Shown here piece after piece: positions 9,111 to 46,414 of a stretch of 64,000 bases of DNA (within the stretch, counting starts at the first letter, position 1; every line of letters begins with the position of its first letter). Source of the DNA: an uncultured bacterium (GTDB lineage Bacteria; CAYUVA01); the NCBI GenBank assembly GCA_964448115.1, contig CAYUVA010000016.1, positions 1 to 64,000 on the forward strand. The letters run 5' to 3'. The position numbers and the translations under genes are program-made. The notes below the pieces were generated by a model. That model had not been told where the DNA came from, ran no database searches, and saw only the letters and a program-made list of their open reading frames with translations.

Positions 9111-10279
9111 TAATAACAAGTGCAGAATACGAAGAAATAGTTTATATATTTAATTATATTATTAGTAAGTTGTCTTACCATAATAACTTGCTAGATTTTA
9201 AATATTTTGATTTTTTGAAACATTATTTTATATTTTATGAAAATCCAAATATTGATAATTGTGGTAATTTAATAGAAAAGACACCCTTACCGCTTTTTCG
9301 TTCCATTTCACCATTTTTTTCTATTGATTATCTTTATATATTATTTGAACATTTATATAATATTAAATTAACTAAAAATAGCTATATAAAACTAACCGAT
9401 GAGATTATAATTAAGATAATAAATATTACTGAGGATTTATTGAAAAAAATAGACCTAGAGAATTTAGTAAACCAAGATTATAAAATGATATATAATATTA
9501 TTTTATCAAGAAAACATGATAAAAGATATTATTGTACAAATAAATCATTTGTGGAGGCTTTATCACATACGAAATTAGTAAATTATATCAAATTTAATAA
9601 ATATTTACAATGTACTTATCATAATAAATTTCATTACTCTTATATATACAAAATAGATGGATATGAATTATTTTATCTATTATCATTTCTTAATATTATT
9701 CTAAAGGAATCCTTGCATTATAAGAAATATAATAAAATAATATATCTTTCTGCTAGAAATGTTTTTAATATATTTATATATTTAGTCCCATTCAATTTTG
9801 ATTGGTTAATTAAAAATAAATCATCACCATATAATTTATTAAATAGATACCAATATTTATATAGTTTAATTTATAATATATATGACATTAAAAATTATCT
9901 TAATGATTACTTAGAGGTAAATATGATGAATGAAATATATCATTATTTCACAACATTAAATAATGACAATATCATATTATCAAATAATAGAATATTGGAA
10001 AAAATATTTTATTTCTATAATACATTACAACCAATAGTAAAATTAGAATTTAGTAAATACTTAATAATTAGAAGAGAATGTCTTTATGAAAAAATAAAAT
10101 ATTTTATACAAAGAATAGATGATTATTATGAATATATAGACTTTCTTTGCATAAGTTACAAAAGAGAAAGACCCAATAGCAAATATTATCCTGAAATGAA
10201 AAAAAATTTAGAAATGTTACATGAATACTTAAAAAATAATAAAAAGGAATTTATAATTATTAAAAAACTATACCTTTAA
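9107..10279 (+). CDS. Very AT-rich hypothetical protein; candidate immunity protein
   Basis: 390 open codons in DNA with only 7-13 G/C per 60 nt in sampled lines. The start overlaps the upstream stop (ATGA). Rich in Y/I/N/K/L, with no recognisable motif. Confidence 0.65.
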   Translation: MIITSAEYEEIVYIFNYIISKLSYHNNLLDFKYFDFLKHYFIFYENPNIDNCGNLIEKTPLPLFRSISPFFSIDYLYILFEHLYNIKLTKNSYIKLTDEIIIKIINITEDLLKKIDLENLVNQDYKMIYNIILSRKHDKRYYCTNKSFVEALSHTKLVNYIKFNKYLQCTYHNKFHYSYIYKIDGYELFYLLSFLNIILKESLHYKKYNKIIYLSARNVFNIFIYLVPFNFDWLIKNKSSPYNLLNRYQYLYSLIYNIYDIKNYLNDYLEVNMMNEIYHYFTTLNNDNIILSNNRILEKIFYFYNTLQPIVKLEFSKYLIIRRECLYEKIKYFIQRIDDYYEYIDFLCISYKRERPNSKYYPEMKKNLEMLHEYLKNNKKEFIIIKKLYL

Positions 10280-11717
10280 AAAATAATTGATAGCTGCGCT
10301 TGAATGAAAACCTTACATAATTGATGAACTCCCGAGGATAACGAAGCTCACGAAGAAGAGTGCGAGTAATGTAACCAGGACGAAAATATAGCATCAGCAA
10401 GCCCTTCCTGCGCAGTCGAATAAGCTCCTCATGCGAGAGATGCCGGGAGCGCACCGGCGATGAACCATAGCTTAACCCATCAAGGCTACCGTTTATTAAA
10501 CCCTCGCTAACCGCCATGTCGTAATATTCAGTCCCAGGAAGAGGAAAGGCGATGTTTATGTCGAAAAAGTCGGCGTTTAGCTCCCTGGCAAAGTCTATAG
10601 TGCTCTTGACGGTATCTTTCGTATCCCAAGGCAAGCCGATGATGAAGAAGGTATGCGACTTGATCCCCAGTTGGCGACAGAGCTTGATCGCCCTTTTGGC
10701 ATCATCGAGAGTGGTTCGCTTCTTCATTGCATCTAAGCTACTCTGGTCTCCGCTCTCGATGCCGAAGCCTATGATGTGGCAGCCGGCTTGCTTCATCCAG
10801 AGCAGCTTCTCCATGTCGATGGTATCAACCCGGCTGTTTGTCGCCCAGGTTATTTGCAGACCCCAGTCGATGATCCCGCTACAAAGCTCGATAAGCCAGT
10901 CGCGCCTCAAGGTGAACGTGTCCGCATTGAACAAAAATGTCTTGATATTAAAGCGTTCCACGCATTCTCGAAGCTCCTTAAGGATGCTCAAAGGGGTTCT
11001 ATAAACCACCCGCGAGCCGCTTATCTTGCCAGCCGGGCAGAAGATGCACTCATAGGGGCAGCCGCGGCTGGTCTGAATGGTGGTTATAGGCTTGTTGGTG
11101 TCCGGAGAGAGATAAAGGCGATTATTAAGCAGATCCCTGGCCGGAAGGGGTAGCTCATCGAAGGGCTTGATATCTCCTTTGTCATCGGTGATTTCGATAT
11201 GATCCCCGCTTCTGTAGGCTATACCGGGGATAGAGCCTAGCTCCGAGCCAAACACTATCTTGTCGATTACCGCCTCCGGCTCGATGCGTACCGCTATGTC
11301 CAAGCCTTCATAGCGCTCCATTATATCTTTGCTGAATATGAGGAAATACGCACCAAAGGCGAGGGTCTTTATTCGGGGATTGACCTGCTTGGCATACTGG
11401 CAAGCCTTCATATCTTCGTGGATGGTTGATGTAGTAACGCTGATGATCAGCCAGTCGTAGCCCTGGGCAATATCAGCCCTGAAGTCATCCCAGGTCTTAT
11501 GTTGCGCAGGATAATCTTCGATGGCGCATTGTGCTCCTTTTCCTCGCAGGATGGCTGCACACCAGGCGAGATCGAGCGGGGGAAGCACCAGTTGAACGGT
11601 CTGATCCTCAACCAGCGACTGGCAGCGATCATCCCGTCTGAAAAGACCGGATGGAGGATTTATCAGAAGTACTTTCAATGGACTATCCCTTGAGCATGGA
11701 GTTTCCACAATTGTCAA
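10260..11717 (-). CDS. Cobalamin-binding radical SAM protein
   Basis: N-terminal LLINPP...PPLDLA B12-binding-type domain, TSRGCPYECIFC (CxxxCxxC), FGIESG and FIIGLPWDT. Confidence 0.9.
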   Translation of the reverse strand: MTIVETPCSRDSPLKVLLINPPSGLFRRDDRCQSLVEDQTVQLVLPPLDLAWCAAILRGKGAQCAIEDYPAQHKTWDDFRADIAQGYDWLIISVTTSTIHEDMKACQYAKQVNPRIKTLAFGAYFLIFSKDIMERYEGLDIAVRIEPEAVIDKIVFGSELGSIPGIAYRSGDHIEITDDKGDIKPFDELPLPARDLLNNRLYLSPDTNKPITTIQTSRGCPYECIFCPAGKISGSRVVYRTPLSILKELRECVERFNIKTFLFNADTFTLRRDWLIELCSGIIDWGLQITWATNSRVDTIDMEKLLWMKQAGCHIIGFGIESGDQSSLDAMKKRTTLDDAKRAIKLCRQLGIKSHTFFIIGLPWDTKDTVKSTIDFARELNADFFDINIAFPLPGTEYYDMAVSEGLINGSLDGLSYGSSPVRSRHLSHEELIRLRRKGLLMLYFRPGYITRTLLRELRYPREFINYVRFSFKRSYQLFFKGIVF

Positions 11718-11791
11718 CTACCCCGTGGTACCGTGGTACCGGCTTTGCAGCTTTGCGTGATATTCTTTCGCTGCCAATTGAACTCAATGAC

Positions 11792-12967
11792 CTATCCCTT
11801 GAACTTCAGCTTGGACAACAGCTTTTTTATTCGTCGGCGATTAGGTATATACCTTGCAGCACGAGTTATCAACCTGTATGCAACTTTGCTTCGAGCCATG
11901 ACCGTTGCCGGATCTCCAGCATTTATCCCCCACCAGGTTACGCAGATACGGCAATAATAGGGCGGAGACTCGGTGTTTATAGCTTTGCGAATGCGCCTAT
12001 AATGGGGGCTGTTCCAGATACTGTCAAAATCATCGGTCAGAATATTCCCCATCGAGTCCGGGTATGCGCAGCAGGGGCGCACATTGCCGCTAGAATCAAT
12101 AAATGCCTGATCCCAAGGGGAGTAACATTTAAGGGGGAAGCGACTGCCTGGAGGATTATGGTCAATGGTCTTGAGGTCGCTCTCATCTTGCGCTTTATCA
12201 ATACTCTGAGCCGGGAGAATAAGCCTGATGCCATACTTCTCAGCCCTCACCGCTGCCCGCTTGAATGCCTCGTGCAGATTGTCTCTTTGTTTTGAGATCG
12301 CAAGGTAGCGGTATCTAGCCGGGATGCCATCCAGGTGCAGCTCATTGACCACCACAGAGCCGATGCCCCATTCCTTAGCCTGCTCGATCAAAGTGGGGAG
12401 CTGCTCGAAGTTGGTCGATGTTGGCACGAAGATGATCCCCACCTCGCTGCCGTTGTTTAGAGACCGCTTGATGCTAGCGGCTGACCTCAGGTTCTCGGTT
12501 ACCCGGTTATATTTCGCCCTAGGGCGGATATGCTCATAAGTACGCGCATCAGCGCCATCGAGCGACACCCAGATCTTCCCGCGCATCATAAGCAGCCTTT
12601 TCGCCAGCTTTGCGGTGAGCAATACGCCGTTGGTTACCAGGAAGGGGATAATCTCGTATTCTTCGAGAGCATCGATGATATTATCCAGGTTTTTCGCCAT
12701 CAGCGGCTCCCCGTCCCCTTGCAGCTCGACGATCTTGAGGTAGGGGAACAGCTCCTCTTTAACCCGCTGGAATACATCAGCGCCCAGGTCGCGCCCTTTT
12801 TGCGGATTGAAGGTTCTTACCCCGCATATAATGCAGTCAAGGTTACAGCGCGAGCTGCTCTCCAGCCAGATATGCACCGGCTTGGAGCGAAGATGCAACC
12901 TGCCAGCCCTTCTCTCCTCGATATTCAGCTTGAGGTTATCTTCCTTTATTTGTGTATATTTACCCAA
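11792..12967 (-). CDS. Radical SAM protein with SPASM/twitch domain
   Basis: CNLDCIIC, GDGEPL, VTNG, VSLDGA and a C-terminal CYSPW..GNVRPCC..MGNI..IWNS..CRIC. Confidence 0.88.
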   Translation of the reverse strand: MGKYTQIKEDNLKLNIEERRAGRLHLRSKPVHIWLESSSRCNLDCIICGVRTFNPQKGRDLGADVFQRVKEELFPYLKIVELQGDGEPLMAKNLDNIIDALEEYEIIPFLVTNGVLLTAKLAKRLLMMRGKIWVSLDGADARTYEHIRPRAKYNRVTENLRSAASIKRSLNNGSEVGIIFVPTSTNFEQLPTLIEQAKEWGIGSVVVNELHLDGIPARYRYLAISKQRDNLHEAFKRAAVRAEKYGIRLILPAQSIDKAQDESDLKTIDHNPPGSRFPLKCYSPWDQAFIDSSGNVRPCCAYPDSMGNILTDDFDSIWNSPHYRRIRKAINTESPPYYCRICVTWWGINAGDPATVMARSKVAYRLITRAARYIPNRRRIKKLLSKLKFKG

Positions 12968-13000
12968 TTATACCGCCTTTTACGGAGCCAACGAAAAAGA

Positions 13001-13732
13001 CTAGATTTTATTTGCAAAAAAGCCGTAGCCTAGGGTGTAGGCTCTCTGTTTGTCCAGCTTGTCCATCAAGCCGCCCAAGAGCGGAAATAGCACGAAAAAA
13101 AAAGGGAAACTTATTATTCTAAGTGGGAATAAAATCATCTTGAGCCATCTCGGCTCGATGATAACGAATAACTGCTGATAAAGGATGATTAGCATCATCG
13201 AAATATACTTGAAATAACCACCGCGCGGTTCAATCTCCTTCACATTAAAGCCGGCAGCCTCCAATAAACCGCGCAGACCATAGCGCGTGTATCTGAAGTA
13301 GTCGTGCGGCACCTGGTGCTCGCCAAATGCTAGCGGCGCAGTGCCGATTATAGCTCCGCCTGGCTTAAGCAACCGGTGCAGCTCTGCGAGAGCAAGCCAC
13401 GGCTCCCTTAGATGCTCCAAGACCTGCGTACAGATAACAATATCGAAGCTCCCATCAGCAAAGGGTAAGCTGTGCAGATCAGAAACCACATCCAGCTTCG
13501 AGTAGTCCCACTTTCCTTCACCCTCAGCGAAATCAACCGCTGTATAATGGTGATCGGCGAAAAGCTCCGCATAGGGCGCCTCCCCAGCCCCGGCATCGAG
13601 CACCTGCAAGCCGGGCGGGAAACCGCTCATCGCATCCTTAAGATAGGCATATATCGAGCCTTCCTCGTGGTTGAGCTTATGATAGAAGCTGCGGGGGAAC
13701 ATGGTGCGCAGCAGCCGGTCCTCGTATTCCAT
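13001..13732 (-). CDS. Class I SAM-dependent methyltransferase
   Basis: VLDAGAGEAPY, LPFADGSFDIVICTQVLEH and LLKPGG. Confidence 0.9.
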   Translation of the reverse strand: MEYEDRLLRTMFPRSFYHKLNHEEGSIYAYLKDAMSGFPPGLQVLDAGAGEAPYAELFADHHYTAVDFAEGEGKWDYSKLDVVSDLHSLPFADGSFDIVICTQVLEHLREPWLALAELHRLLKPGGAIIGTAPLAFGEHQVPHDYFRYTRYGLRGLLEAAGFNVKEIEPRGGYFKYISMMLIILYQQLFVIIEPRWLKMILFPLRIISFPFFFVLFPLLGGLMDKLDKQRAYTLGYGFFANKI

Positions 13733-13734
13733 CC

Positions 13735-14427
13735 CTATCTTCCCTTGAAGATGAAGTGAGCGCCGAGCAGGTTGGGGAATCGCTCGATCAGACTTTGTCC
13801 CAGTCGATTTATTCCCGGTATATGCTTGAATAAGCGCATCAGGGGATAGCTCCCCTCGGAGATGCGGTATTCGAGCAGCTCCAAGCCTGCCTCAGAAAAG
13901 TAGCGCTTGAATGAATCGAAGGTGAAGAAGCGAAGGTGAGTCCAGTCCAGGATGCCGGTCTCGCTGTACTCGAAGCGACCGAGCAGAAATCGCCAGCGCA
14001 TCCTATAGTGCAGCACATTCGGAAAGGTTACAAGCAGGTATCCAAAGCTGTCTAATAGCTCTTTTAGCCTTGCCAATACCCCGAAGGGATCGACCAAGTG
14101 CTCGATCACATCCGACATTAGGATCACCTGGTATGGGGGGCTAAGCAGATTGAGGGTCTCGGCATCTTCGATGTCAGCTTGTATGACCTTTGCCCCGCTC
14201 TTGCCTGCCTGCGAGGCGAGCAACGGGTGCACTTCTACAGCATCCACCGAGCATCCCCTGCTTTGCAATTCCTTTGTCATATAACCAGAGGCGCATCCTA
14301 TTTCTAGCACTCGCTTGTTATAGCCGACCATCTCGATGAGCATGCGGTGCACATCGGTAAGCCCATGGCGTTCGATTTGCTTCATTGCCTCGATTGCGGT
14401 CCTCTCGCTGTAAAGCAGGCTGGTCAT
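13735..14427 (-). CDS. Class I SAM-dependent methyltransferase (glycan-cluster type)
   Basis: VLEIGCASG, DVIEHLVDP and GILDWTHLRFFT. Confidence 0.9.
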   Translation of the reverse strand: MTSLLYSERTAIEAMKQIERHGLTDVHRMLIEMVGYNKRVLEIGCASGYMTKELQSRGCSVDAVEVHPLLASQAGKSGAKVIQADIEDAETLNLLSPPYQVILMSDVIEHLVDPFGVLARLKELLDSFGYLLVTFPNVLHYRMRWRFLLGRFEYSETGILDWTHLRFFTFDSFKRYFSEAGLELLEYRISEGSYPLMRLFKHIPGINRLGQSLIERFPNLLGAHFIFKGR

Positions 14428-15887
14428 TTCCTAAGATAATACAAACCCTTTCTAGCCATATCGCGCAGCATTCCGACGGTCCCCTCGGTGCGATGTATCT
14501 TGCGCAGGTACTGGAAAAATACGGCTGGGTTGCGGAGCAGGTTTCCGATGCGTCTTCGTTTGGCTTCCTCCAAGGCAGCAACTATCTGATCGCGTTTAAG
14601 TAGCGGGTACTCGATCACCGGCGAGCATCCCCCCTCGAAGCTGCTCCAGTCATCGGTGGTGAGCCAGCCGTTTTGTTTAGCCATCTCGTAGAATTCGGTG
14701 CCGGGCAGCGGGGTTGCTACCGAGAACTGATAGGTTGTCGCTCGCAGGGAATAGGCGAACTCCATTGTCTCCTTGATGGTCTGCTCGGTCTCGCCGGGCA
14801 AGCCGAACATGAAGGTTCCGTGAGTATATATGCCCACCTTGCGGCAGAGGTCAACGAAGCGGCGCACCTCTTCGAGCTTGAGCGGCTTTTTAATCGCCCT
14901 GAGTATATGTTCGCTAGCCGTCTCCACGCCGAACTTGACGCCGTGGCAGCCGGAGCGCTTCATCAGCCGCAGCGTCTCCTCGTCAATGCGCGCATCAGCC
15001 ATGCACGACCAGTAAACCTTGACCCCGCGCTTCAGGATCTCCTCGGCGACCGCCCGCGCCTTTTTCTTATCAGTGGTGAAGGAGCTGTCGTCGAAGTATA
15101 TCTCCTCGACATCATAGCGCTTGAGGACATACTCGATCTCATCAACGATCGCCACCGGATCGCGGTAGCGAAGCGATGGCTTGCCGTAGAGCACATAAGG
15201 CTCGATGCAGAAGATGCAGCGAAACGGGCAACCACGCGAGGCAATCAGGCAGACATTGGGATATTTCTTGCAAGTGGGGTCAGTATATTTGAAAAGGGGC
15301 ACATCGTCTCGTTCAGGATAGGGGAGGCTGTCGAGATCCTCGATAAGCTCACGCCTGCCGTTGTTGATGATGTTCCCCTCCTCGTCCTTGGCGGCAATAC
15401 CGGCAAGCCTTCGCCAAGAGTCGCCATTATCCATGTAAGCGTGATAGACCTGGAGCAGTGTCATCTCGTACTCTCCGAGCAGCACGCCATCGACATATTC
15501 ATGCGCCAGGGACTCTACAGGGAGAGCGGTAACATGGGGTCCGGCTAAAAGCACCAGCGCGGAAAGCTCCTTCTTGCACAGCTTTGCAAACCGCCAGTCC
15601 TGGTATATCGAAGGGGTGCCGGTCTCGATTACCACTATCTTGGGCGCCATCTCCTTGAGCTGTTTCATTGTTTGTGCTGTGGAAAGCTCCCCTGCTATGG
15701 CATCGAGGAATTTTGCCTTGATTCCCTCCCTCTTCAGCACCGCCACCGCGTAGCAGGAGAAGAATGGATAGGGATAGTATTGCAATGTCTCGGAGCGCTT
15801 GCGGATGGATGGCCACCTGGAGCCAGCCTTGACTCCATAAGCATCCGGCGCCTCATGCCACGGCGAGTTTACGATTACGACTTCCAT
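14424..15887 (-). CDS. Cobalamin-binding radical SAM protein (HpnJ-like N-terminus)
   Basis: AGSRWP..YPYP, GPHVT, ASRGCPFRCIFC, FGVET and FMFGLPGET. Confidence 0.9.
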   Translation of the reverse strand: MEVVIVNSPWHEAPDAYGVKAGSRWPSIRKRSETLQYYPYPFFSCYAVAVLKREGIKAKFLDAIAGELSTAQTMKQLKEMAPKIVVIETGTPSIYQDWRFAKLCKKELSALVLLAGPHVTALPVESLAHEYVDGVLLGEYEMTLLQVYHAYMDNGDSWRRLAGIAAKDEEGNIINNGRRELIEDLDSLPYPERDDVPLFKYTDPTCKKYPNVCLIASRGCPFRCIFCIEPYVLYGKPSLRYRDPVAIVDEIEYVLKRYDVEEIYFDDSSFTTDKKKARAVAEEILKRGVKVYWSCMADARIDEETLRLMKRSGCHGVKFGVETASEHILRAIKKPLKLEEVRRFVDLCRKVGIYTHGTFMFGLPGETEQTIKETMEFAYSLRATTYQFSVATPLPGTEFYEMAKQNGWLTTDDWSSFEGGCSPVIEYPLLKRDQIVAALEEAKRRRIGNLLRNPAVFFQYLRKIHRTEGTVGMLRDMARKGLYYLRK

Positions 15888-16663
15888 CTTTTCGTCTTCC
15901 TGTGTTTTAAGAAGAACCTGATTATATTTCTAATATGATACCAGGTCATGATGTTGAAGAGATTGCGGGCGCTCTCTCGGTGATAGCGATGGATGACCAC
16001 TGCCTGGGGATTGTAGTAGATCTTGTATCCTGCCAGGCGAATTCGATAACACCAGTCAACATCCTCGTAATATAGGGGATCGAACCTTTGGTCAAGCATG
16101 CCGACCCTATCGATAATCTCCCTTCGCACCATGAGGAAGGCGCCCAGAAACCAGTCAACTTCCCTTGCCCTTTCGTGATCCCAGTCCATCATCAGGTAAT
16201 CCCTAAGCAGCGGGTGCTGGTGGTCGTGGAAATTGGTCGCCCAGCGCAGGAAGATAGCCTTTGGAGTCGGAAAGCGCCGGCAGTTGTATTGCAGGGTGTT
16301 ATCAGGATTGAGCAGCTTGCAGCCGGCTGCACCAGCATCTTTATGCTCATCCATGAAGCGCACCATCTCGGCAAGGCAGCCATCCTGCACTATCGTATCC
16401 GGGTTGAGAAGCAATATATATCTCCCGGAGGCTTGTCTTATCGCCTGGTTATTATTGCTGGCAAAGCCCTTCTTCTGGCGGTTACAGACCAGATTTACCT
16501 GCGGATACTCGGTCTTGACCAGAAGCGAAGTCCCATCGCTGCTGGCGTTGTCAATGATGAACATCTCGAAGTCTATGCCTTGCGGCTTTTTGAAGATCGA
16601 TGGCAGGCAGGTGCGCAAGAACTGCGCCTCGTTAGTGCTTATTGTTACTATAGATAAGTCCAT
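15875..16663 (-). CDS. Glycosyltransferase family 2
   Basis: IIDNASSDG, GFASNNN, LLLNPDT and YYEDVDWCYR. Confidence 0.92.
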   Translation of the reverse strand: MDLSIVTISTNEAQFLRTCLPSIFKKPQGIDFEMFIIDNASSDGTSLLVKTEYPQVNLVCNRQKKGFASNNNQAIRQASGRYILLLNPDTIVQDGCLAEMVRFMDEHKDAGAAGCKLLNPDNTLQYNCRRFPTPKAIFLRWATNFHDHQHPLLRDYLMMDWDHERAREVDWFLGAFLMVRREIIDRVGMLDQRFDPLYYEDVDWCYRIRLAGYKIYYNPQAVVIHRYHRESARNLFNIMTWYHIRNIIRFFLKHRKTKRWKS

Positions 16664-18974: not shown

Positions 18975-20126
18975 ATGGAGAATCTCCAGAATAAATACCG
19001 CGTATCAGCCACAAAGTGCGATCGCTATGAGCTGCCATTGCTCAAAGAGAAGATAGCGCTGCTTTTAGAGCTTATAGGGGGGGCAGACCAGTTCTTCAAA
19101 CATGGAAGCAAGGTTTTGCTCAAGCCCAACCTGCTACTTGCCAGGGAGCCTGAAAAGGGGGTTACCACCCATCCAGCGGTCGTAGGGGCGGTTGCTGAGC
19201 TGGCGCTAGATCACGGTGCCAAGGTCAGCATCGGGGACAGCCCCTCCGGCGGGCTTAAGAGCATGGATAAGCTATGGGCTAAAACGGGCGTGAGCAGTAT
19301 GGCAAGGAAATACGGTGTTCCCCTCTTGAACCTGGAGAAATATGGCGTCGAGGCTAGGGATATCAACTTTGGCGACCTTAAGAAGGTCTATATATCCAAG
19401 GCGGTGCTCGAAAGCGATCTCGTGGTCAATCTGCCAAAATTGAAAACACACAACCTTACTATAATAACCCTTGCGATGAAGAATTCTTATGGCTGCCTGC
19501 CCGGTTTCCAGAAACCCCAATTGCACAGCATGTTCAGCAATGCAGCCATTTTTGGCGCCCTCGTCGCCAGGATACACGCGTTGATCGAGCCGGGCTTGAA
19601 CATAATGGATGGGATACTCGGCATGGATGGAAGGGGTCCGACCACGGGAGATCCCTACTGGGCGAAGATGCTTCTTGCCTCCGATAATGCCCTGGCAATG
19701 GATATGCTACTCGCAACACTAATGGGGATCAATCCCATGAAGATCGAAAGCATCACCGAAGGTATAAAGCTAGGAGTTGGACCTGGCGATCTATCCCAGG
19801 TCGAGCTTGTCGGTGGTAACATGGAGGATTTTAGGCTGGCTGGCTTCAAGGTGCCTAGCAATAAGGCTATGCGCCTGATGCCCAACCTGGTCGGTCGGGT
19901 CATGAGCCATTTCTTCTGGGTTTATCCCCAGGTCGATCCGCTCAAGTGCACCCTGTGCAAGGAGTGCATCAAGATCTGTCCTACGGGGTCGATCAGCGAG
20001 GTACATGATGCTGCTTTCGTTGAGCGCAAGACATGTATTACCTGTTTCTGCTGTGTCGAGACCTGCGAGTATGAGTCGATCGAAGTAAAAACCAGCCTGG
20101 CAGCCAGGAGGTTCTTGAGTCAATAG
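18975..20126 (+). CDS. DUF362 domain protein with C-terminal 2[4Fe-4S] ferredoxin domain
   Basis: VLLKPNLL, TTHP, GDSP, NLPKLKTH and MKN, followed by CTLCKECIKICP and CITCFCCVETC. Confidence 0.88.
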   Translation: MENLQNKYRVSATKCDRYELPLLKEKIALLLELIGGADQFFKHGSKVLLKPNLLLAREPEKGVTTHPAVVGAVAELALDHGAKVSIGDSPSGGLKSMDKLWAKTGVSSMARKYGVPLLNLEKYGVEARDINFGDLKKVYISKAVLESDLVVNLPKLKTHNLTIITLAMKNSYGCLPGFQKPQLHSMFSNAAIFGALVARIHALIEPGLNIMDGILGMDGRGPTTGDPYWAKMLLASDNALAMDMLLATLMGINPMKIESITEGIKLGVGPGDLSQVELVGGNMEDFRLAGFKVPSNKAMRLMPNLVGRVMSHFFWVYPQVDPLKCTLCKECIKICPTGSISEVHDAAFVERKTCITCFCCVETCEYESIEVKTSLAARRFLSQ

Positions 20127-21445: not shown

Positions 21446-21484
21446 TAAGAATACAACATAAAAAAATCAAGGGAGTTGGATATC

Positions 21485-22618: not shown

Positions 22619-22631
22619 GGAGGGAATCTGC

Positions 22632-25948: not shown

Positions 25949-26003
25949 AGGCTTGAGGCTTGAGACTGACACGGTTCATCTAAGATATTTTTATCAGAAT
26001 TCT

Positions 26004-26082
26004 TGGATTCCCGCCTGTGCGGTAATGACGAAAATACGGAAATTACTGCCCCTCTTGTCATGCCCGCGAAGGCGGGCATCCA
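26004..26082. repeat. Inverted pair of REP-like palindromic units
   Basis: TGGATTCCCGCCTGTGCGGTAATGAC (26004-26029) and GTCATGCCCGCGAAGGCGGGCATCCA (26057-26082) are near reverse complements, and each is itself a hairpin. Confidence 0.85.
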
Positions 26083-26199
26083 GTATTTTAAGTACCAAGT
26101 TAATAGTATTAAACTTATAGATTTTTGAAATATCAAGACACAAAGACCCAAAGAAGAGAACTGGTAATCGGTTAATAACAAACCTACGAGGGACACCAA

Positions 26200-27984
26200 A
26201 TGCTGGAAGAGCTAGCCAACCTGACCCTGGATGAGGTGCTGGAATATACCAGCCAGAAGTCCCCTGGCAAGATCGCCTTGATCGAGGGGAACAAGACAAT
26301 AACTTACTCTATGTTGAGCGAGCGCGTCAATTGCCTGGCAAACTCACTGGCAGCTTTTGGGATAAAGCCGGGGGATACTATCGCCCTTTTCCTCAATAAA
26401 GGCATTGAACTGCCAGAGACCTTCCTCGCATCGGCTACCTGCGGGGCACTGGTGGCGCCAGTCAACTTCAACCTCACCATAAATGGCATAATGGATATGC
26501 TCCAGGAGATAGAGCCAAAGGTCGTGATCACGCACGATGAATTCCTTGAGGCGGTGCAGGCTCTAAGGCAGCATTTCAACTTCACCCCAATCGTTGCGGG
26601 TAAAGCAAACCTCCCTGATGGATATTTATCCTATGAAGAATTGATATCCAAAGGCGCACCGGTCAGGCTGCGAATCACCAGTGATCCGGACACGCCGATC
26701 TATCTCAACTATACAAGCGGCACCACTGGACGACCAAAGGGAGTGATTACCACCCACCGCATGATCGGATACAATACCATTTCAGCTATCGAGGCTCTGG
26801 AGTTATCGGTAAATGACATTCACCTGGTTACCTTTGCTGCTTTTTCGCACCCTCATGAGTTTTTTGCCCGCGCCCTTTATCTCGGTGGAAGCGCGGTGAT
26901 GCTTGACAGCATCTATCCCAAGTCTATCTCGGAGTGTATTGAAAAACACAAAGTTACCTGCCTGATGGCTGTTCCCCCTATCCTCAAGCTGTTGACTCCC
27001 TTTGGCAAAAGCGGCCGATACGACTACTCTACCTTGCACCTGGTTGAAGCTGGTGGGATGCCGACTCCGCCTGAGCTATTTACTGATTTCAAGCGCCACT
27101 TCGGTATCGAGATAACCCCGGTGTGGGGTTCTACCGAGACCAGCGGCATTGCATTCGCAACTCCCAAAGGTTGCTACCGGGAAAACTCGGCAGGGAAAAT
27201 CTGCCCCTACTATCGATTTAAGGTCATCGATGATAAGCACGATCCAGTACCGCTCGGGCAGGTTGGCGAGCTGGTCATTTCAGGAGCGGCGGTTGTAAAG
27301 GAGTACTTCAAGCAACCCAAGGCGACCAAGGAGTCGATCCAGAAGGGCTGGTTTTTCACCGGCGACCTGGTAACCGTGGATGAGGATGGCTACATCTATT
27401 TTGCAGGCAGAAAGAGCGGCATGATCAAGGTCAGCGGTCTAAAGGTGTTTCCCAAGGAGATCGAGGATGTCCTTTTTAGCCATCCTAAGGTCGAGGAAGT
27501 GGCGGTTGTCGGTATCGATGACCCGCTTAAGGGAGAGGTTCCCAAAGCCTTTGTGGTTCTCAAAGAAACCGAGCAAGCCACCGCTGCGGAGCTTATTGAC
27601 TATGCTGCCAAGTTCCTGCCTCACTACAAGATTCCCAAGCAGATCGAATTCAGGTTCAACCTCCCTAGAATTGGAGCTGGAAAGATCGATAGAAAAGCGC
27701 TTCTAAAGCCAGTTGAGGATCAGCAGAAGGAAGCTAGGCTGCATGAGCTTAAGGAAAGGCTCAACCGAATAGATCTCCATATACTCCAATTACTAAACGA
27801 ACACTTTAAGATCTCGCAGGGAATTATCGAATTTCTCAGGGGAAATAATATGCCGCTTTACATTCCAGAGATAGAGGAAGAACTGATCAGAAACATACTG
27901 GGACATAACTCCGGTCCCTTGCATGATGAGATAATCGAGGAGATATTCCGCAAGATCCTTTCAAGTATGGATTTTTATAAATAA
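26200..27984 (+). CDS. AMP-binding acyl/aryl-CoA ligase with C-terminal chorismate-mutase (AroQ)-like domain
   Basis: YTSGTTGRPKG, WGSTETSG, TGDL, GRKSGMIKVSG and GKIDRK. The tail from 27739 (LHELKERLNRIDLHILQLLNE..GPLHDEIIEEIFRKI) follows the AroQ helical pattern. Confidence 0.88.
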   Translation: MLEELANLTLDEVLEYTSQKSPGKIALIEGNKTITYSMLSERVNCLANSLAAFGIKPGDTIALFLNKGIELPETFLASATCGALVAPVNFNLTINGIMDMLQEIEPKVVITHDEFLEAVQALRQHFNFTPIVAGKANLPDGYLSYEELISKGAPVRLRITSDPDTPIYLNYTSGTTGRPKGVITTHRMIGYNTISAIEALELSVNDIHLVTFAAFSHPHEFFARALYLGGSAVMLDSIYPKSISECIEKHKVTCLMAVPPILKLLTPFGKSGRYDYSTLHLVEAGGMPTPPELFTDFKRHFGIEITPVWGSTETSGIAFATPKGCYRENSAGKICPYYRFKVIDDKHDPVPLGQVGELVISGAAVVKEYFKQPKATKESIQKGWFFTGDLVTVDEDGYIYFAGRKSGMIKVSGLKVFPKEIEDVLFSHPKVEEVAVVGIDDPLKGEVPKAFVVLKETEQATAAELIDYAAKFLPHYKIPKQIEFRFNLPRIGAGKIDRKALLKPVEDQQKEARLHELKERLNRIDLHILQLLNEHFKISQGIIEFLRGNNMPLYIPEIEEELIRNILGHNSGPLHDEIIEEIFRKILSSMDFYK

Positions 27985-27998
27985 AATAAAGCCGTTAA

Positions 27999-28805
27999 AT
28001 GGATAAAAAGGTTAAAGGCAGCAGCCGTCAACCGCTGCGCATCAAGAATGTCGAGTTCAATGCCCAGACCAGGGTCATAATCGCCGGTCCCTGCGCGGTG
28101 GAGAGCTATGAGCAATACCGCACCATCGCCCAGTTCCTGTCCTCGATTGGGGTCAGGTTCATGCGCGGCGGCGCCTTCAAGCCAAGAAGCTCACCATACA
28201 GCTTCCAGGGACTGGAGGAGAAAGGGATGGAGATAATCAAGGCGGTTGGCGACGAATTCGGCATGGCGACCGTCTCCGAGGTGCTCGATGAGCGAAGCCT
28301 GAAGGTGGCTGTAGATCATGTTGACATGCTCCAGGTAGGTGCCCGTAACATGGACAACTACTCCCTTTTGAAGATGGTCGGAGCCAGTGGCAAGCCGGTG
28401 CTTTTGAAGCGCGGTTTCATGGCAAAGATCGAGGAATTTCTGCTCGCAGCCGAGTACCTCTTCGCCCAGGGCAACGATCAGGTGGTGCTCTGTGAGCGTG
28501 GCATACGAACCTTTGAGGATATGACGCGAAATACGCTCGATCTGGCTGCTATTGCCCTGATAAAGAAACTATCCTCCAATCTTATCATCGCGGATCCGAG
28601 CCATGGAACCGGTCGAGCGGACATCATTCCCCAGATGGCAAGGGCTGCCCTGGTCGCCGGCGCAGACGGGCTTATCATAGAGGTTCACAACAATCCGAAA
28701 AAAGCGCTTAGCGACGGGCTGCAATCGCTCGATTTCGATACCTTTGCTCGTCTCTACGAGGATCTGCATAAAACCGCTGAATTCATGGGAGTAAGGCTTT
28801 CATGA
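27999..28805 (+). CDS. aroF: 3-deoxy-7-phosphoheptulonate (DAHP) synthase, type I-beta, with no regulatory extension
   Basis: IAGPCAVES, RGGAFKPRSSPYSFQG (not the KANRS of KDO8P synthase), QVGARNM, LLKRG, CERGIRTF, DPSHGTG and EVH..P..ALSDG. Confidence 0.93.
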   Translation: MDKKVKGSSRQPLRIKNVEFNAQTRVIIAGPCAVESYEQYRTIAQFLSSIGVRFMRGGAFKPRSSPYSFQGLEEKGMEIIKAVGDEFGMATVSEVLDERSLKVAVDHVDMLQVGARNMDNYSLLKMVGASGKPVLLKRGFMAKIEEFLLAAEYLFAQGNDQVVLCERGIRTFEDMTRNTLDLAAIALIKKLSSNLIIADPSHGTGRADIIPQMARAALVAGADGLIIEVHNNPKKALSDGLQSLDFDTFARLYEDLHKTAEFMGVRLS

Positions 28806-30079
28806 GCAGAGCATCCAAGGCACAAGCGGAACCGGAACCCCTGGTCGCGGTCATAAAAAGAGACCAGATCCCGCAGTTGCCCTATCAATTCGATAAAAAA
28901 AGCGTTGATATTATTAAATCGATGCTCGCCGAGACCCTCGAACTAATCGGTTTCAACGAAATCAAAGGCGCAAGTGTTATCATAAAGCCTAACCTGGTGC
29001 GCCCAGCCCTGAGAAAGCTGCCCGGCATAACTACTGACCTCAGGGTAATTATCGCTGCCTGCGAGCTATTTAAGGATATGGGTGCCAGGACGGTCATGGT
29101 AGGCGACAATCCTGGATACGGGCTATCCTGCCGTGAGGCGCTGAATGCTGGGAACGCCGTTGAGCTTATCAAAAGGACAGGCGCCGAGGTTCGATTCTTC
29201 GATCAAGAGCCACAGGTTACAGTGGCAAATAAGGAAGCGCTTCTGTTCAAGAATATAAAGGTGGCAAAGCTTATCCTCGATGCTGATCTACTGGTCAATC
29301 TCCCCAAGATGAAGACGCATGTACACACCCAGGTATCGCTAGGAATGAAGAACCTGCAAGGGATCTTCAGCGGAGAGCAGAGACTATTTTATCACCGCAA
29401 TGACCTTAGCCAGAAGATAGTCGATACGGTGCGGGTACGAATGCCTGACCTGAACATCATAGACGGCTTGTGGGCAATGGAAGGTCAAGCGCCTTTCTTC
29501 GGTAACCAGATAGCCGATTTCGGCACCATTGTCGCCAGCAGGGACATCCTGGCGGTTGATATCATCTCAGCCAGGCTGATGGGATTCCATCACTCCGAGA
29601 TAGCGCATATAATGCTTGCCCTGCAACAAAAGCTCACCGATGTCGATCCTGCAAAAATTCAAACTGTAGGGACTCCATTGGAACAAGTGGCTCGGCATTT
29701 TATAAGACCGGTGGTGAGCAGCCTCGGAGCCTATGAGCATATAAATGTATTCGAGGGCGGAGCATGTCTCGGATGCATGTCAGCGCTTAGGCATTCGCTT
29801 GATAAGATGAACTTCGATCAGCTATTTCCAAAGCTTGGACAGCTTAGCATATATCTTGGCAAACCGATGCTGGGAGCGACAAGCATAACTGATTGGTCAG
29901 GCGATCTATGGCTGGTTGGCAACTGTGCCTTGGAGCTTACCACCTGTCCCATCAGGGATAAGCGTGAGGTCGGCTTCGTGCCTGGATGTCCGCCGCATGT
30001 GCTCGATTTCTACAAGGCAGTGTGCCTTAAATATGGTTTGCAGTCTAAGGATCAGGAGTACGATGAAATATTCAGATAA
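28802..30079 (+). CDS. DUF362 domain protein with C-terminal Cys-rich (GAC.GC/GNC/GCPP) domain
   Basis: IIKPNLV, TTD, NLPKMKTH, GMKNLQG and GCPP. ATGA overlap with the DAHP synthase gene. Confidence 0.85.
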   Translation: MSRASKAQAEPEPLVAVIKRDQIPQLPYQFDKKSVDIIKSMLAETLELIGFNEIKGASVIIKPNLVRPALRKLPGITTDLRVIIAACELFKDMGARTVMVGDNPGYGLSCREALNAGNAVELIKRTGAEVRFFDQEPQVTVANKEALLFKNIKVAKLILDADLLVNLPKMKTHVHTQVSLGMKNLQGIFSGEQRLFYHRNDLSQKIVDTVRVRMPDLNIIDGLWAMEGQAPFFGNQIADFGTIVASRDILAVDIISARLMGFHHSEIAHIMLALQQKLTDVDPAKIQTVGTPLEQVARHFIRPVVSSLGAYEHINVFEGGACLGCMSALRHSLDKMNFDQLFPKLGQLSIYLGKPMLGATSITDWSGDLWLVGNCALELTTCPIRDKREVGFVPGCPPHVLDFYKAVCLKYGLQSKDQEYDEIFR

Positions 30080-30081
30080 CC

Positions 30082-31866
30082 CTAATCCTTTATTTCATCG
30101 ATATTCTTTGGCATATCCTTTATTATAGTATCTTGAACCGAGGCGACCAGGTCTCTATCAGCTATCTTTACAAGAACCGTTCGGTTTTCATGGTCATCTC
30201 CGATCAAAAGTGGACCCAACACCTTATCATCCTTGAGTCTAACAGTTATCTTGGCTCGCGGGGAATCCAATCCATACCGTGATAGATCACCGGCAGGCTC
30301 GGAGATGATCTCTTCCATCTTCACATAATCGGTAGCCCAAATAATTTTATCCATCTTGGCTCGAGGAACCTTGAATTTCTCAGGTTCTACAAGGTACCAG
30401 TCATCTCCCTTGCGCTCAAAGACCATATTGGTATCAGGCAGCTCTATCTCGATCGATTCCAGATCCTCCCTGGAAAAATTCATCAGCATTTTATTTCTCA
30501 AGTCGAACAGGCTCTTGTTTATGCCCTTGAAATCCTTGTTGGCAATGGAGAACACCGCATTGATATCTGAGTTGGTCGCATAGTAGGCTTCCTCGCCTCG
30601 AACCAGGTCGCCGACAAACAATTGGTGGATTTGGTCTCGAGGGAAGGTTTGCTGTACGGTCAGGGTGTACCATGGCTTATCCAGTCCATATTTTGCAAGC
30701 CTGGGAGCATCCTCATCGATGTACTCCTTGACCTTCATCATGGAGAGGGTTGCCAACATGCTGTTTATGAAAGCATCATCTCCCTTATCCTCGAATGGTT
30801 TTGCCAGGCTCCACTTGCCCTCGTCTTCATCTTTCACAGCTTCTATGATCTCATCATTACGTTTAATTATCAGCCTGGCAACCGATTCGCGAGCAAACTT
30901 GAGCACGCTGCGCTCACGCAGGTCGATCGGCTGCTTGTTAAGATCATCGTACAAGCTTTTTCTCACCCTGAATACCTGCCTGCTTTGTCCGCGCGTGGCA
31001 TAGTATTCTTCCTTAGTTTCATCATCGACCCTGTTACCGATGATAAGGGTCTTTTGGGCATTATCCTCGCCGACCAGGAATGAGACCTTAAGCTGCGGCT
31101 TATCAAGTCCATACTTTTCAAACTCCTCTGCCTTCTCCTCGATAAATGCGGTTATGCGCGAGTTATTGATGCTATTGATCAGCTTTTCTATCTCCTTATG
31201 GTCGCCGGGTGCATTTTTAGGCTCGACAAGCTTCCAAACATCGCCGGAGGGATGCTCAATGACTATCCTCGGTTTGTCCTTTGCTTCTATGGTTAGCCTG
31301 TTTACCTCGTACAAGTCGAGTGAAAGGATTTTCTTATCCCGCAGGTCAAAAAGCTCCTTATTCGCGGTAGTAAACAGCCTGTTCTGGGCGAGCATGACCG
31401 TGGGCTTTTCGTGCATTCTTGCATATCGGTAGGCTTTTGTCGGATTGGTGTTACCTAGCTCTATAGTTCTTGTAATCTTTCCATCATTGCTGCCCACTGT
31501 AACCCTGATTTTTGGGGGGTGAAGCCCGAAGACGACGAGATCCTTTGGCGAATCGGTAACGATCCGCTCTCGTTTAGCGGTGACCAGGGTGCTCACCAAT
31601 CCATCTGCTGCCACCTCATCAGCCGGGGCAGGTATAGGCTCCACGATCCGCCATTCATCCTTATCTTTAACAAGCCTTATGGTCAGGTTCTTGTCGATAT
31701 TTTCGAGTGTTATGGATCCAACCTGTTCTTTCTCAAGGTCAATGAACTTTTTCTGTTGTTCCTCGATTTCCTTTTTCTCGCTCAGGTACTTGTGTTCATA
31801 GAAGTAGAAATATGCTGCAATAAAAGATAGTATGATAAGTAGTACAGCAGTGGTCTTGAAGCTCAT
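30082..31866 (-). CDS. DUF4340 repeat protein (Gld-like ABC system accessory)
   Basis: N-terminal TM helix and three repeats of W.(I/L)..P...(Y/F)GL..P....LR; position downstream of gldG-like gene. Confidence 0.85.
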   Translation of the reverse strand: MSFKTTAVLLIILSFIAAYFYFYEHKYLSEKKEIEEQQKKFIDLEKEQVGSITLENIDKNLTIRLVKDKDEWRIVEPIPAPADEVAADGLVSTLVTAKRERIVTDSPKDLVVFGLHPPKIRVTVGSNDGKITRTIELGNTNPTKAYRYARMHEKPTVMLAQNRLFTTANKELFDLRDKKILSLDLYEVNRLTIEAKDKPRIVIEHPSGDVWKLVEPKNAPGDHKEIEKLINSINNSRITAFIEEKAEEFEKYGLDKPQLKVSFLVGEDNAQKTLIIGNRVDDETKEEYYATRGQSRQVFRVRKSLYDDLNKQPIDLRERSVLKFARESVARLIIKRNDEIIEAVKDEDEGKWSLAKPFEDKGDDAFINSMLATLSMMKVKEYIDEDAPRLAKYGLDKPWYTLTVQQTFPRDQIHQLFVGDLVRGEEAYYATNSDINAVFSIANKDFKGINKSLFDLRNKMLMNFSREDLESIEIELPDTNMVFERKGDDWYLVEPEKFKVPRAKMDKIIWATDYVKMEEIISEPAGDLSRYGLDSPRAKITVRLKDDKVLGPLLIGDDHENRTVLVKIADRDLVASVQDTIIKDMPKNIDEIKD

Positions 31867-46408: not shown

Positions 46409-46414
46409 AATGCT

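Follow-up and report, generated by a model that had tools for sequence, protein, structure and literature searches.

Why should an AMP-forming ligase end in a chorismate mutase-like domain, when the gene directly behind it encodes a DAHP synthase that lacks any such domain? The question is raised by a locus of an uncultured bacterium, for which a stretch of 64,000 nucleotides of contig CAYUVA010000016.1 (the window) was analysed. DAHP synthase (DAH7PS) is the textbook example of allostery acquired by domain recruitment, with ferredoxin-like/ACT-like domains, N- or C-terminal chorismate mutase (CM) domains and a non-covalently bound CM all serving as regulators.

The first gene of the locus (26200..27984; plus strand, as all features below unless stated otherwise) was assigned on the basis of the ORF, Pfam and NCBIfam as an ANL (AMP-forming) ligase of 594 residues with a C-terminal CM_2 domain. 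An AMP-binding domain covers residues 15-370 (26242..27309; PF00501, 245 bits) and an AMP-binding_C domain residues 420-495 (27457..27684; PF13193, 77.6 bits). Together with the core motifs these domains place the protein in the ANL superfamily: in 23 sequences T172, S173, G174, T176, P179 and K180 are invariant and G177 is nearly so, and G310-S311-T312-E313, T387-G388-D389 and G494-K495 are invariant as well. The AF2 model of the ligase (mean pLDDT 85.8) has its closest folds among the aryl-acid CoA ligases, e.g. 4wv3, 5bst, 8wev and 4rm3. The protein scores below the cut-off of every substrate-specific NCBIfam model, the best being PRK06187 (403 vs 476).

The tail of the ligase (residues 498-593, 27691..27978) shows the AroQ topology, a long H1 followed by H2 and H3, with AF2 helices at 498-548, 556-568 and 576-593 and a pLDDT of 56-84 per ten-residue block (residues 501-594). 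The AroQ pattern noted in the original prediction was confirmed by the CM_2 HMM (PF01817), which matches residues 519-588 (27754-27963) with 45.8 bits in the full ligase and 50.0 bits in the tail alone (Pfam cut-off 27). All NCBIfam CM models remain below their cut-offs; the best is the P-protein type model CM_P2 (47.3 bits vs 69.55), which outranks the 360-position bifunctional CM/DAHPS model PRK12595 (43.0 bits, with the tail at positions 3-80). The four best solved relatives, 2d8d (4.9e-9), 5j6f (1.9e-6), 5gmu (4e-6) and 3nvt (6e-5), are CM domains that come from CM-DAHPS enzymes or carry their name, and monofunctional mutases rank behind them (0.013 or worse). The Bacillus segment that had been named as resembling the tail is present in the alignment to chain 5gmu_A. 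Among 1.84 billion representatives the best match to the tail is a free-standing protein of 88 residues (45% identity), and a word-indexed search with the tail alone returned only the window's own protein, as 1 of 91 candidates.

As a reference for the active site we used Arg10', Arg27, Lys38, Asp47, Arg50, Glu51 and Gln86 of BsCM_2, which according to PMC5526877 correspond to R11', R28, K39, D48, R51, E52 and Q88 of EcCM. The equivalents in the tail are K518, H535, L546, I555, I558, E559 and K594. An earlier alignment by eye, in which R11, R28, K39, D48 and R51 read K, H, L, I and I, thus holds, and with one polar residue kept out of seven (E559) mutase activity indeed seems unlikely. The tail is a genuine CM_2 domain in degenerate form, which cannot be a normal mutase. 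Other members have retained more: in Zixibacteria/LCP-89-type tails the equivalents of Arg27 and Gln86 are preserved, frequently together with that of Arg50 and with a Lys (or Arg) at the Lys38 position, and the L051-type tail keeps those of Arg10, Arg27, Arg50 and Glu51. These better-preserved copies, the CM_2 match above the Pfam cut-off and the aryl-acid ligase fold would all agree with a tail that is an active pericyclic enzyme (chorismate mutase or isochorismate-pyruvate-lyase-like) and makes the acid used by the ligase. Such a role is nevertheless very unlikely: besides the losses in the window's copy and the failure of the NCBIfam CM models, none of the 23 fused proteins has all seven residues, none has an Asp at the Asp47 equivalent, and an isochorismate synthase was not seen in the window.

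The ligase stop codon is followed by a spacer of 14 nt (27985..27998) and a change of frame, after which an ORF of 268 codons begins (27999..28805). Pfam, NCBIfam and a PDB search identify its product as a type I-beta DAHP synthase that consists of the barrel only, just as had been predicted. DAHP_synth_1 matches residues 24-258 (245 bits), and the protein passes both PRK08673 (380.6 vs 335) and TIGR01361 (346.9 vs 267.75). Since the alignment spans only positions 79-335 of the 338 of PRK08673, an N-terminal regulatory domain is absent. C32, H202, E228, D239 and K61-P62-R63 are invariant in an alignment of 52 sequences, and the first four align gap-free to positions 102, 272, 298 and 309 of 1rzm, which we take to coordinate the metal in the Thermotoga enzyme. 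Family membership is thus indicated by HMM scores above cut-off as well as by the presence of the metal- and PEP-binding residues. At conserved DAHPS columns the window's synthase deviates in 7 of 92 cases, against 7-10 for the cluster-type fusions and 3-6 for the other sequences listed, figures that depend on the choice of alignment. The synthase also matches positions 105-355 of the 360 of PRK12595 (338.5 bits, cut-off 279); with the tail of the ligase at positions 3-80, the gene boundary therefore sits in the linker of that model. The single polypeptide that defines the CM-linked DAH7PS is replaced in the window by separate ORFs in different frames, and the ligase frame is interrupted by stop codons.

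An arrangement of this kind might be produced by an assembly or sequencing artefact, or by a recent frameshift, that broke up a CM-DAHPS gene and joined it to a ligase, and the window's exact ligase protein does come from a single contig. This is hardly credible, however, and is refuted as far as the comparison reaches, as the ligase-CM_2 fusion is shared by 22 further protein clusters and, across several candidate phyla, by 13 of the 80 best related genome loci. The window's own genome is absent from these 80 loci, in which the best ligase identity is 47%. Among the 120 ligase homologues listed, 23 (including the window's own) carry PF01817, at 37-42% identity; an ESM Atlas search returned plain ligase clusters only.

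The neighbourhood is conserved along with the fusion. A CM-less DAHPS gene follows the ligase in ten of the 13 fused loci, with a spacer of at most about 31 nt in nine of them and of about 565 nt in L037. In all ten related loci that have both, the ligase-CM and DAHPS genes are separate, and their relative frames vary. In ten of the 67 unfused loci a gene of the cluster begins with a CM domain; in nine of these the domain is fused to a readable DAHPS (partial in L074), and in L072 the contig end falls inside the CM domain. The two CM forms were not found together, nor was a free-standing CM gene found, in any of the 80 loci. Across lineages, exactly one CM domain is present per cluster, carried either by the ligase or by the synthase, in 19 of 19 loci with a readable DAHPS, a count that overstates the number of independent events as the loci are mutually related. 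The DAHPS-bearing fused loci sort into no fewer than four groups divergent from one another: Zixibacteria/LCP-89-type loci, L037, L061 and the window. Ligase, CM domain and DAHPS are linked across lineages.

The CM_2-DAHPS fusions are found in Thermodesulfobacteriota (L006, L009, L019, L052, L062, L064, L068, L071 and L074). These loci resemble the window in ligase subfamily, in cluster type and in having a single CM domain and a single I-beta synthase in each cluster, but they carry the CM domain on the synthase and have an unfused ligase, and the domain is only 28-29% identical to the window's tail. It keeps five of the seven polar residues (D47 in 7/9), with Phe in place of Arg27 and Met in place of Gln86 in 9/9.

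The distribution also bears on the possibility that the tail serves the ligase alone, as a homodimerisation module or a small-molecule sensor, and that the adjacency of the DAHPS gene reflects no more than a shared pathway. In L051 (2.6 kb downstream covered) and L053 (8 kb) the fusion occurs without a DAHPS gene nearby, and the tail therefore has some role independent of an adjacent synthase; L065 ends at a contig edge. The columns of the tail that are invariant in 23/23 fused proteins (D525, N533, N570, G572, P573, D576 and F583) all lie outside the active-site positions, and the AroQ fold is described in PMC5526877 as an obligate dimer, both of which would suit a module that works on its own ligase. 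We nevertheless regard this possibility as rather unlikely, as it leaves the complementary placement of the single CM domain unexplained.

The gene downstream of the synthase encodes a DUF362 protein of 425 residues (28802..30079; ORF, Pfam), the start of which overlaps the DAHPS stop by 4 nt. The ligase-DAHPS-DUF362 order that had been pointed out recurs in L061. The AF2 model of the DUF362 protein (mean pLDDT 80.5) gave 18 Foldseek matches in the PDB with E <= 0.001 (TM 0.32-0.41), and all 18 are LarA, LarA-like proteins, malate racemase or 4nar, a structural-genomics entry of unnamed function. Upstream, a terminator-like hairpin with a T-run (26060..26089) lies between an ETF-alpha/HpaB-like gene, which ends at 25948, and the ligase start. 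It is the sole terminator-like site in 25500-30600, and as shuffled sequences contain 4.6 on average the match carries little weight by itself; from its position, ligase, DAHPS and DUF362 would seem to form a transcription unit of their own. Promoter-like sites were no commoner than in shuffles, and Rfam found one tRNA in the whole window and nothing near the operon.

The wider surroundings of the locus are those of an exopolysaccharide-like, radical-SAM-rich cluster and not of an aromatic amino-acid operon. On the minus strand (10263..16663) lie genes for a B12-binding radical SAM protein, a SPASM radical SAM protein, two methyltransferases, a third radical SAM protein and a family-2 glycosyltransferase. 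These are possibly part of the same cluster, since genes of these kinds also surround the ligase-CM/DAHPS pair in L010, L037, L040 and L045. A second DUF362 gene, with a 4Fe-4S dicluster domain, is found at 18975..20123. The clusters of the relatives contain polyprenyl-phosphate sugar transferases, Wzx-type flippases, Poly_export proteins, glycosyltransferases, a sulfotransferase and nucleotidyl transferases, and the loci examined yielded no aro genes. Because of this context, the proposed link between shikimate entry and aryl-CoA activation is only one possible reading.

Another reading dispenses with a feed into the shikimate pathway. By analogy with Kdo, the synthase would make a 3-deoxy-heptulosonate for a surface glycan, the LarA-like DUF362 protein and the ligase would modify the sugar acid, and the CM-like domain would respond to neither chorismate nor prephenate but to some other ligand. 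The glycan transferase, flippase and export genes of the relatives and the lack of aro genes in the loci examined fit this, and the two replacements at Arg27 and Gln86 in the cluster-type CM-DAHPS proteins hint at a changed ligand. The synthase itself, however, shares 55-62% identity with ordinary DAHP synthases and is remote from the KDO8P synthases (in the PDB search, 286 bits for 1rzm vs 90.7 bits for KDO8P synthase), and neither a sugar-specific phosphatase nor a CMP-transferase was identified beside it. To our knowledge, no heptulosonate glycan has been described from these uncultured groups. We consider this reading unlikely; it would be compatible with a docking function of the tail.

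As to the origin of the arrangement, it had been proposed that the domain boundary of an ancestral CM-DAHPS gene had shifted. This proposal did not find support. In a quick DAHPS tree (LG+G4) a 99% branch parts the CM-fused cluster synthases from all others, so that bare and CM-fused synthases are not joined, and the placement of the window's synthase is not settled. Nor do other data show it: none of the 120 nearest DAHPS homologues listed is CM-fused, the tail shares little identity with the CM domains of the cluster-type synthases, and its best NCBIfam model is CM_P2. The trees themselves neither show nor reject it: in both the DAHPS and the ligase tree (quick LG+G4) the window's proteins are on long, unresolved branches. 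A single clade of all 14 fused ligases was not rejected by the AU test (p 0.234), which does not by itself prove a single origin. Five proteins of 353-363 residues that had been considered as CM-DAHPS (P0170, P0178, P0189, P0202 and P0242) were set aside, as the sequence behind the CM domain reads like prephenate dehydratase, with what we take to be the motif of that enzyme; they were used solely as CM outgroups. P0187 and P0212, which have a C-terminal CM match, were rejected as DAHPS because the DAHPS tree gave them branches 7-10 substitutions per site long.

The best explanation, which we put forward tentatively and at a little below even chances, is that the DAHP synthase has in the tail, a degenerate AroQ domain, a docking or regulatory partner that acts in trans. 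The tail would thus play the part that the N-terminal CM domain plays in cis in the Bacillus/Listeria-type enzymes. The tail would dimerise and seat itself on the neighbouring bare type I-beta synthase, thereby tying the ligase to the synthase and possibly gating the latter. The synthase is probably the source of a DAHP-derived building block within the exopolysaccharide-like cluster, and the ligase would activate a carboxylic acid of the same pathway. Such a mechanism is plausible because the movement of CM onto the barrel is established for DAH7PS: in the N-terminal CM-linked enzymes, PMC8408635 reports, the CM dimers come to lie on the barrel tetramer when prephenate binds, and there they occlude the active sites. 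The trans role is favoured by the CM_2 identity of the tail, its nearest structures in CM-DAHPS enzymes, the joint coverage of PRK12595, the conserved fusion and the complementary distribution. Against it stand the L051 and L053 fusions, CM_P2 as best model, the free-standing best match of the tail, the separation in the DAHPS tree and the lack of CM fusions among the listed DAHPS homologues. A more specific form appears doubtful, in which the aryl/acyl-acid ligase carries the synthase's docking or allosteric domain and the CM-like dimer bridges the two enzymes into one assembly, so that the ligase, as consumer of a later acid of a DAHP-derived branch, would be coupled to the entry of carbon into that branch or would gate it.

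Within the trans role, a constitutive docking and dimerisation module is more likely for the window's tail than a chorismate/prephenate sensor, because this copy has lost the cationic residues that bind these ligands. Classical allosteric sensing, with inhibition by chorismate or prephenate, is unlikely here since six of the seven polar ligand-binding residues are replaced. The known N-terminal CM-linked type I-beta DAH7PS, i.e. AroA(G) of Bacillus subtilis and the enzymes of Listeria monocytogenes and Geobacillus sp. (PDB 5gmu, 3nvt and 5j6f), do keep them and bind chorismate or prephenate, according to PMC5526877 and PMC8408635. The window shares with these enzymes the combination of an AroQ-type CM and an I-beta barrel, tail and next gene together covering PRK12595, but its CM domain is located at the C-terminus of the preceding ANL ligase.

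Precedents exist for a CM that works with DAH7PS without N-terminal fusion. According to PMC8408635 and PMC7762937, Mycobacterium tuberculosis has a non-covalent DAH7PS-CM complex, and Prevotella and Porphyromonas have C-terminal CM-linked DAH7PS. In those systems, however, the CM, whether free-standing or fused to the synthase, is catalytically active and belongs to the synthase's own pathway, whereas the domain in the window looks inactive and resides on a third enzyme, of another family. In Geobacter, a free-standing DAHPS-type regulatory domain is encoded beside a chorismate mutase (Gmet_1956/Gmet_1955), as stated in PMC2700814. Here too a proposed regulatory module is encoded apart from the synthase and would act on a neighbouring enzyme, but the domain is of the Thermotoga type, the partner is a different one and the suggestion stems from genome annotation only. 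A literature search, with most subscription journals outside its reach, found no paper on the AMP-binding plus CM_2 architecture.

The finding draws attention to an exopolysaccharide-like type of cluster, widespread and undescribed, which has a DAHP synthase dedicated to it alongside a LarA-like DUF362 protein and B12/SPASM radical SAM enzymes. If the trans role is true, it predicts a specific assembly of ligase and synthase, and in its bridging form it would add a third, inter-enzyme way to attach a CM-type regulator to DAH7PS, in a cluster of the glycan or lipid type. The ligase-borne CM domain and the cis form in the sister clusters would then constitute a natural experiment on how regulatory modules move from gene to gene within one cluster.

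On the plus strand of the window, ORF reading and Pfam identify a 594-aa ligase (26200..27984) consisting of an AMP-binding domain (residues 15-370, 245 bits), an AMP-binding_C domain (residues 420-495, 77.6 bits) and a C-terminal CM_2 domain (residues 519-588, 45.8 bits versus a cut-off of 27). A spacer of 14 nt with a frame change separates it from the gene for a 268-aa DAHP synthase (27999..28805, plus strand; DAHP_synth_1, 245 bits), the stop of which overlaps by 4 nt with the start of a gene for a 425-aa DUF362 protein (28802..30079, plus strand; 157 bits). The original prediction of a ligase with a CM-pattern tail, closely followed by this synthase, was thus confirmed in every detail by ORFs, Pfam and NCBIfam. 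A terminator-like hairpin (about 26060-26079, plus strand), weak as a match on its own, lies between the upstream plus-strand genes and the ligase.

The second gene is predicted to encode an intact DAHP synthase. It passes two type I-beta models of NCBIfam (PRK08673, 380.6 versus 335; TIGR01361, 346.9 versus 267.75), and among solved structures it matches the Thermotoga enzyme 1rzm with 286 bits, against only 90.7 bits for a KDO8P synthase. Residues C32, H202, E228 and D239 and the motif K61-P62-R63 are invariant in an alignment of 52 sequences, and the four single residues correspond without gaps to positions 102, 272, 298 and 309 of 1rzm, which we take to be its metal ligands. Since the protein aligns only to positions 79-335 of a 338-position NCBIfam model, it lacks an N-terminal regulatory domain, as had been proposed. 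At 92 columns where at least 90% of the 52 synthases share a residue, it is off-consensus at seven (L55M, L77M, T143K, P186A, L194N, P195L and V198A), a count affected by the choice of alignment; at the same columns the CM_2-DAHPS fusions of Thermodesulfobacteriota discussed below deviate at 7-10, and 3-6 deviations occur in the remaining rows listed.

The tail of the ligase resembles the CM domains of CM-DAHPS enzymes. In the AlphaFold2 model of the whole ligase (mean pLDDT 85.8, 23-sequence alignment) the predicted tail helices (498-548, 556-568 and 576-593) have the AroQ topology. Among ten matches to solved structures with E up to 1, the best four (2d8d, 4.9e-9; 5j6f, 1.9e-6; 5gmu, 4e-6; 3nvt, 6e-5) are CM domains either taken from CM-DAHPS enzymes or named after them; monofunctional mutases match with E 0.013 or worse. 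On the bifunctional NCBIfam model PRK12595 (360 positions) the tail covers positions 3-80 and the product of the next gene 105-355, so that the gene boundary falls inside the linker. None of the NCBIfam CM models is passed by the tail, the best being the P-protein type CM_P2 (47.3 bits, below cut-off).

For the CM domain of B. subtilis, the accessible part of PMC5526877 names seven polar residues of the active site together with their E. coli equivalents. Mapping this list through the alignment of the tail to solved structures places K518, H535, L546, I555, I558, E559 and K594 at these positions, so that one of the seven is kept. The first five agree with the earlier assignment by eye, which was correct, and mutase activity still appears unlikely; that the tail is an active mutase or lyase in the window's ligase is highly improbable.

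The same architecture was found in 23 proteins among the 120 homologues listed for the full-length ligase, the window's own included; the fused homologues share 37-42% identity with it, and some are named Zixibacteria or candidate division LCP-89 by their sources. When the tail alone was searched exhaustively, 695 matches at E <= 0.001 were obtained. Of the 150 best, seven proteins of 569-598 aa, one of them the window's own, match at their C-terminus, and the rest are mostly shorter than 200 aa; the top match is an 88-aa protein (45% identity). A sequencing or assembly error is ruled out as far as comparison allows, since the fusion recurs in other proteins and in related loci. The literature searched, which left out most subscription journals, yielded nothing on an AMP-binding plus CM_2 architecture. 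By the residue list of the accessible PMC5526877 text, none of the 23 fused proteins keeps all seven active-site residues. The equivalent of Arg27 is an arginine in 22, the window being the sole exception; Arg50 is kept in 14, Gln86 in 10, Glu51 in seven, Arg10 in three, Lys38 in three (with arginine in another eight) and Asp47 in none. The invariant tail columns (D525, N533, N570, G572, P573, D576 and F583) include no active-site position.

A complementarity in the placement of the CM domain was observed among 80 loci of the ligase subfamily (one genome per species, the window's own genome not among them), in which ligase, CM, DAHPS and DUF362 were located within 8 kb either side of the ligase by tblastn (the window's proteins plus seven CM queries), ORF reading and Pfam. 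The ligase carries the CM domain in 13 loci. In ten of these a same-strand DAHPS of 261-277 aa without CM domain comes next, after about 9-31 nt in nine and after about 565 nt of non-coding DNA in the locus L037; no DAHPS follows the fused ligase within the 2.6 kb of downstream sequence covered in L051 or the 8 kb covered in L053, and in L065 the contig edge is reached. The other 67 loci have an unfused ligase, and ten of them contain a CM domain, each time at a gene start: nine have a readable full or partial CM_2-DAHPS fusion (L006, L009, L019, L052, L062, L064, L068, L071 and L074; 358-378 aa when complete), and in L072 the contig ends within the CM domain. Both CM forms together, or a free-standing CM gene, occur in none of the 80 loci, and in all 19 loci with a readable DAHPS the CM domain is absent from this enzyme if, and only if, the ligase carries one. 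These counts are of kin loci, not of independent events: the fused loci with DAHPS form about four divergent groups, namely L037, L061, the window and a set of eight Zixibacteria/LCP-89-type loci, and every unfused locus that contains a CM domain belongs to the Thermodesulfobacteriota, with several families and three gene orders represented. By the same residue list, the CM domains of the nine CM_2-DAHPS fusions retain five of the polar residues, with the Asp47 equivalent in 7/9, and have Phe for Arg27 and Met for Gln86 in 9/9 (BsCM_2 numbering); they, too, have the appearance of modified ligand-binding domains and not of functional mutases.

The data are compatible with the originally proposed boundary shift in an ancestral CM-DAHPS gene, which this complementarity suggests, although the quick trees do not demonstrate it. 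It is equally possible that the ligase independently captured a small free-standing CM. In the ligase tree (81 rows, quick LG+G4) the fused state must change three times, but only one of these changes is forced by well-supported branches, and a single clade of all 14 fused ligases is not rejected by the AU test (p 0.234). In this tree the ten loci with a cluster CM group with the five DUF362-adjacent ligases in one 22-row clade (100% support). In the DAHPS tree (43 rows, quick) the CM-fused cluster synthases are set off from the rest by a branch with 99% support; the window's synthase has a branch of 0.65 versus a median of 0.14 and no resolved placement. Among the 120 nearest DAHPS homologues listed none is CM-fused, all being bare or with a ferredoxin-like PF18152 domain.

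The gene content of the loci and the window points to an exopolysaccharide-like, radical-SAM-rich biosynthetic cluster. In Zixibacteria/LCP-89-type loci and L037 the cluster goes on with genes for a Wzx-like flippase and for B12-binding and SPASM radical SAM proteins; L037 further holds DUF362 and a UbiA protein resembling decaprenyl-phosphate phosphoribosyltransferase. The window's order of ligase-CM, DAHPS and DUF362 recurs in L061, between an NAD-epimerase/dehydratase and a radical SAM enzyme. L051 and L065 have the fused ligase together with a nucleotidyl transferase, a glycosyltransferase of family 2 and a radical SAM enzyme. The Thermodesulfobacteriota loci combine a WcaJ-type polyprenyl-phosphate sugar transferase, ligase, Zn-dehydrogenase, CM-DAHPS, molybdopterin oxidoreductase and radical SAM enzymes, some adding DUF362, glycosyltransferases, a sulfotransferase and Poly_export; in Desulfovibrionaceae the unfused ligase is paired directly with DUF362. 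In four plain loci (L004, L014, L036 and L049, from Kuenenia (anammox), Nitrospirota, Schekmanbacteria and a 'Deltaproteobacteria' MAG) the ligase overlaps the Zn-dehydrogenase, with Poly_export close by; three (L014, L036, L049) have a nucleotidyl-transferase/polyprenyl-phosphate sugar-transferase fusion, and that of Kuenenia also a Wzx-like flippase. This group looks like a conserved, undescribed exopolysaccharide module. No other aro genes were found within 8 kb either side of the ligase in the examined loci, and the synthase may either feed the shikimate pathway or make a heptulosonate for a glycan.

Upstream of the window's ligase, the minus strand (10263-16663) encodes B12 and SPASM radical SAM proteins, two methyltransferases, a third radical SAM protein and a family-2 glycosyltransferase (Pfam). 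The plus strand carries a hydrolase, a second DUF362 with a ferredoxin domain (18975-20123, 4Fe-4S dicluster, 9 kb from the operon copy), two acyl-CoA dehydrogenases and ETF-beta (20303-23456), and an 831-aa protein (23453-25948) combining ETF-alpha (ETF, ETF_alpha) with an HpaB/4-hydroxybutyryl-CoA-dehydratase-like flavoprotein (HpaB_N, HpaB), by its domains an unusual electron-transfer/dehydratase fusion. The dehydrogenases resemble acryloyl-CoA reductase AcrC but, at 467 and 364 bits, do not reach its cut-off of 640.

Elsewhere in the window, ORFs of 1756 aa (3840-9107, plus) and 390 aa (9107-10279, plus) have no Pfam match at E <= 1e-6, and the bin 8001-10000 has 30% G+C versus 42-54% in all other 2-kb bins. 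A 301-aa ORF (2283-3188, minus) with AAA_lid_9, AAA_2 and ClpB_D2-small only corresponds to a ClpB-type chaperone reduced to its C-terminal half; the gene may be split or truncated, or its true start may lie outside the called ORF. The match of a 657-aa aromatic amino-acid lyase (49629-51602, minus; PF00221, 512 bits) is broken into two parts, suggestive of an insertion; this gene is 20 kb away from the DAHPS and has no obvious link to it. An XPB/RAD25-type helicase followed by a 766-aa protein with Helicase_C_3 occupies 44702-48715 (plus).

The ligase passes no substrate-specific NCBIfam model. Its AlphaFold2 model is closest to enzymes that adenylate aryl acids or join them to CoA (anthranilate-, 4-coumarate-, feruloyl- and benzoate-CoA ligases and DHB-AMP ligase), which weakly hints at an aryl substrate. 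For the DUF362 protein of the operon no solved relative was found by sequence; its model (pLDDT 80.5) resembles LarA-type nickel-pincer racemases/epimerases, all 18 matches at E <= 0.001 being LarA-type or 4nar, a structural-genomics protein without named function (TM 0.32-0.41). This agrees with the shared Pfam clan of DUF362 and LarA stated in the accessible part of PMC11770544. The C-terminal Cys-rich region of the operon copy is common, in an alignment, to the ligase-adjacent DUF362 of L061, L037, L075-L077 and L058.

In N-terminal CM-linked DAH7PS the CM domain is a regulatory module, and CM dimers flank the barrel tetramer and close the active sites on prephenate binding (PMC8408635, accessible text). 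By analogy, the ligase-borne CM may act in trans, supplying the protein-protein side of this function. This is the simplest reading of a single CM per cluster, on either gene, and we hold it at slightly less than even confidence. The tail would then dimerize and sit on the bare synthase, thereby tethering the ligase to it. The main rival reading, which we consider somewhat less probable, is that the tail instead serves the ligase alone, as dimerizer or sensor; the fused loci L051 and L053, with no synthase close by, fit it. If the CM does act in trans, we expect the window's tail to be used for tethering rather than for chorismate or prephenate sensing, since its dicarboxylate-ligand residues are gone. 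Other members of the fused family may still bind a ligand, and the cluster-type CM of the Thermodesulfobacteriota may be a regulatory domain that has switched to another ligand.
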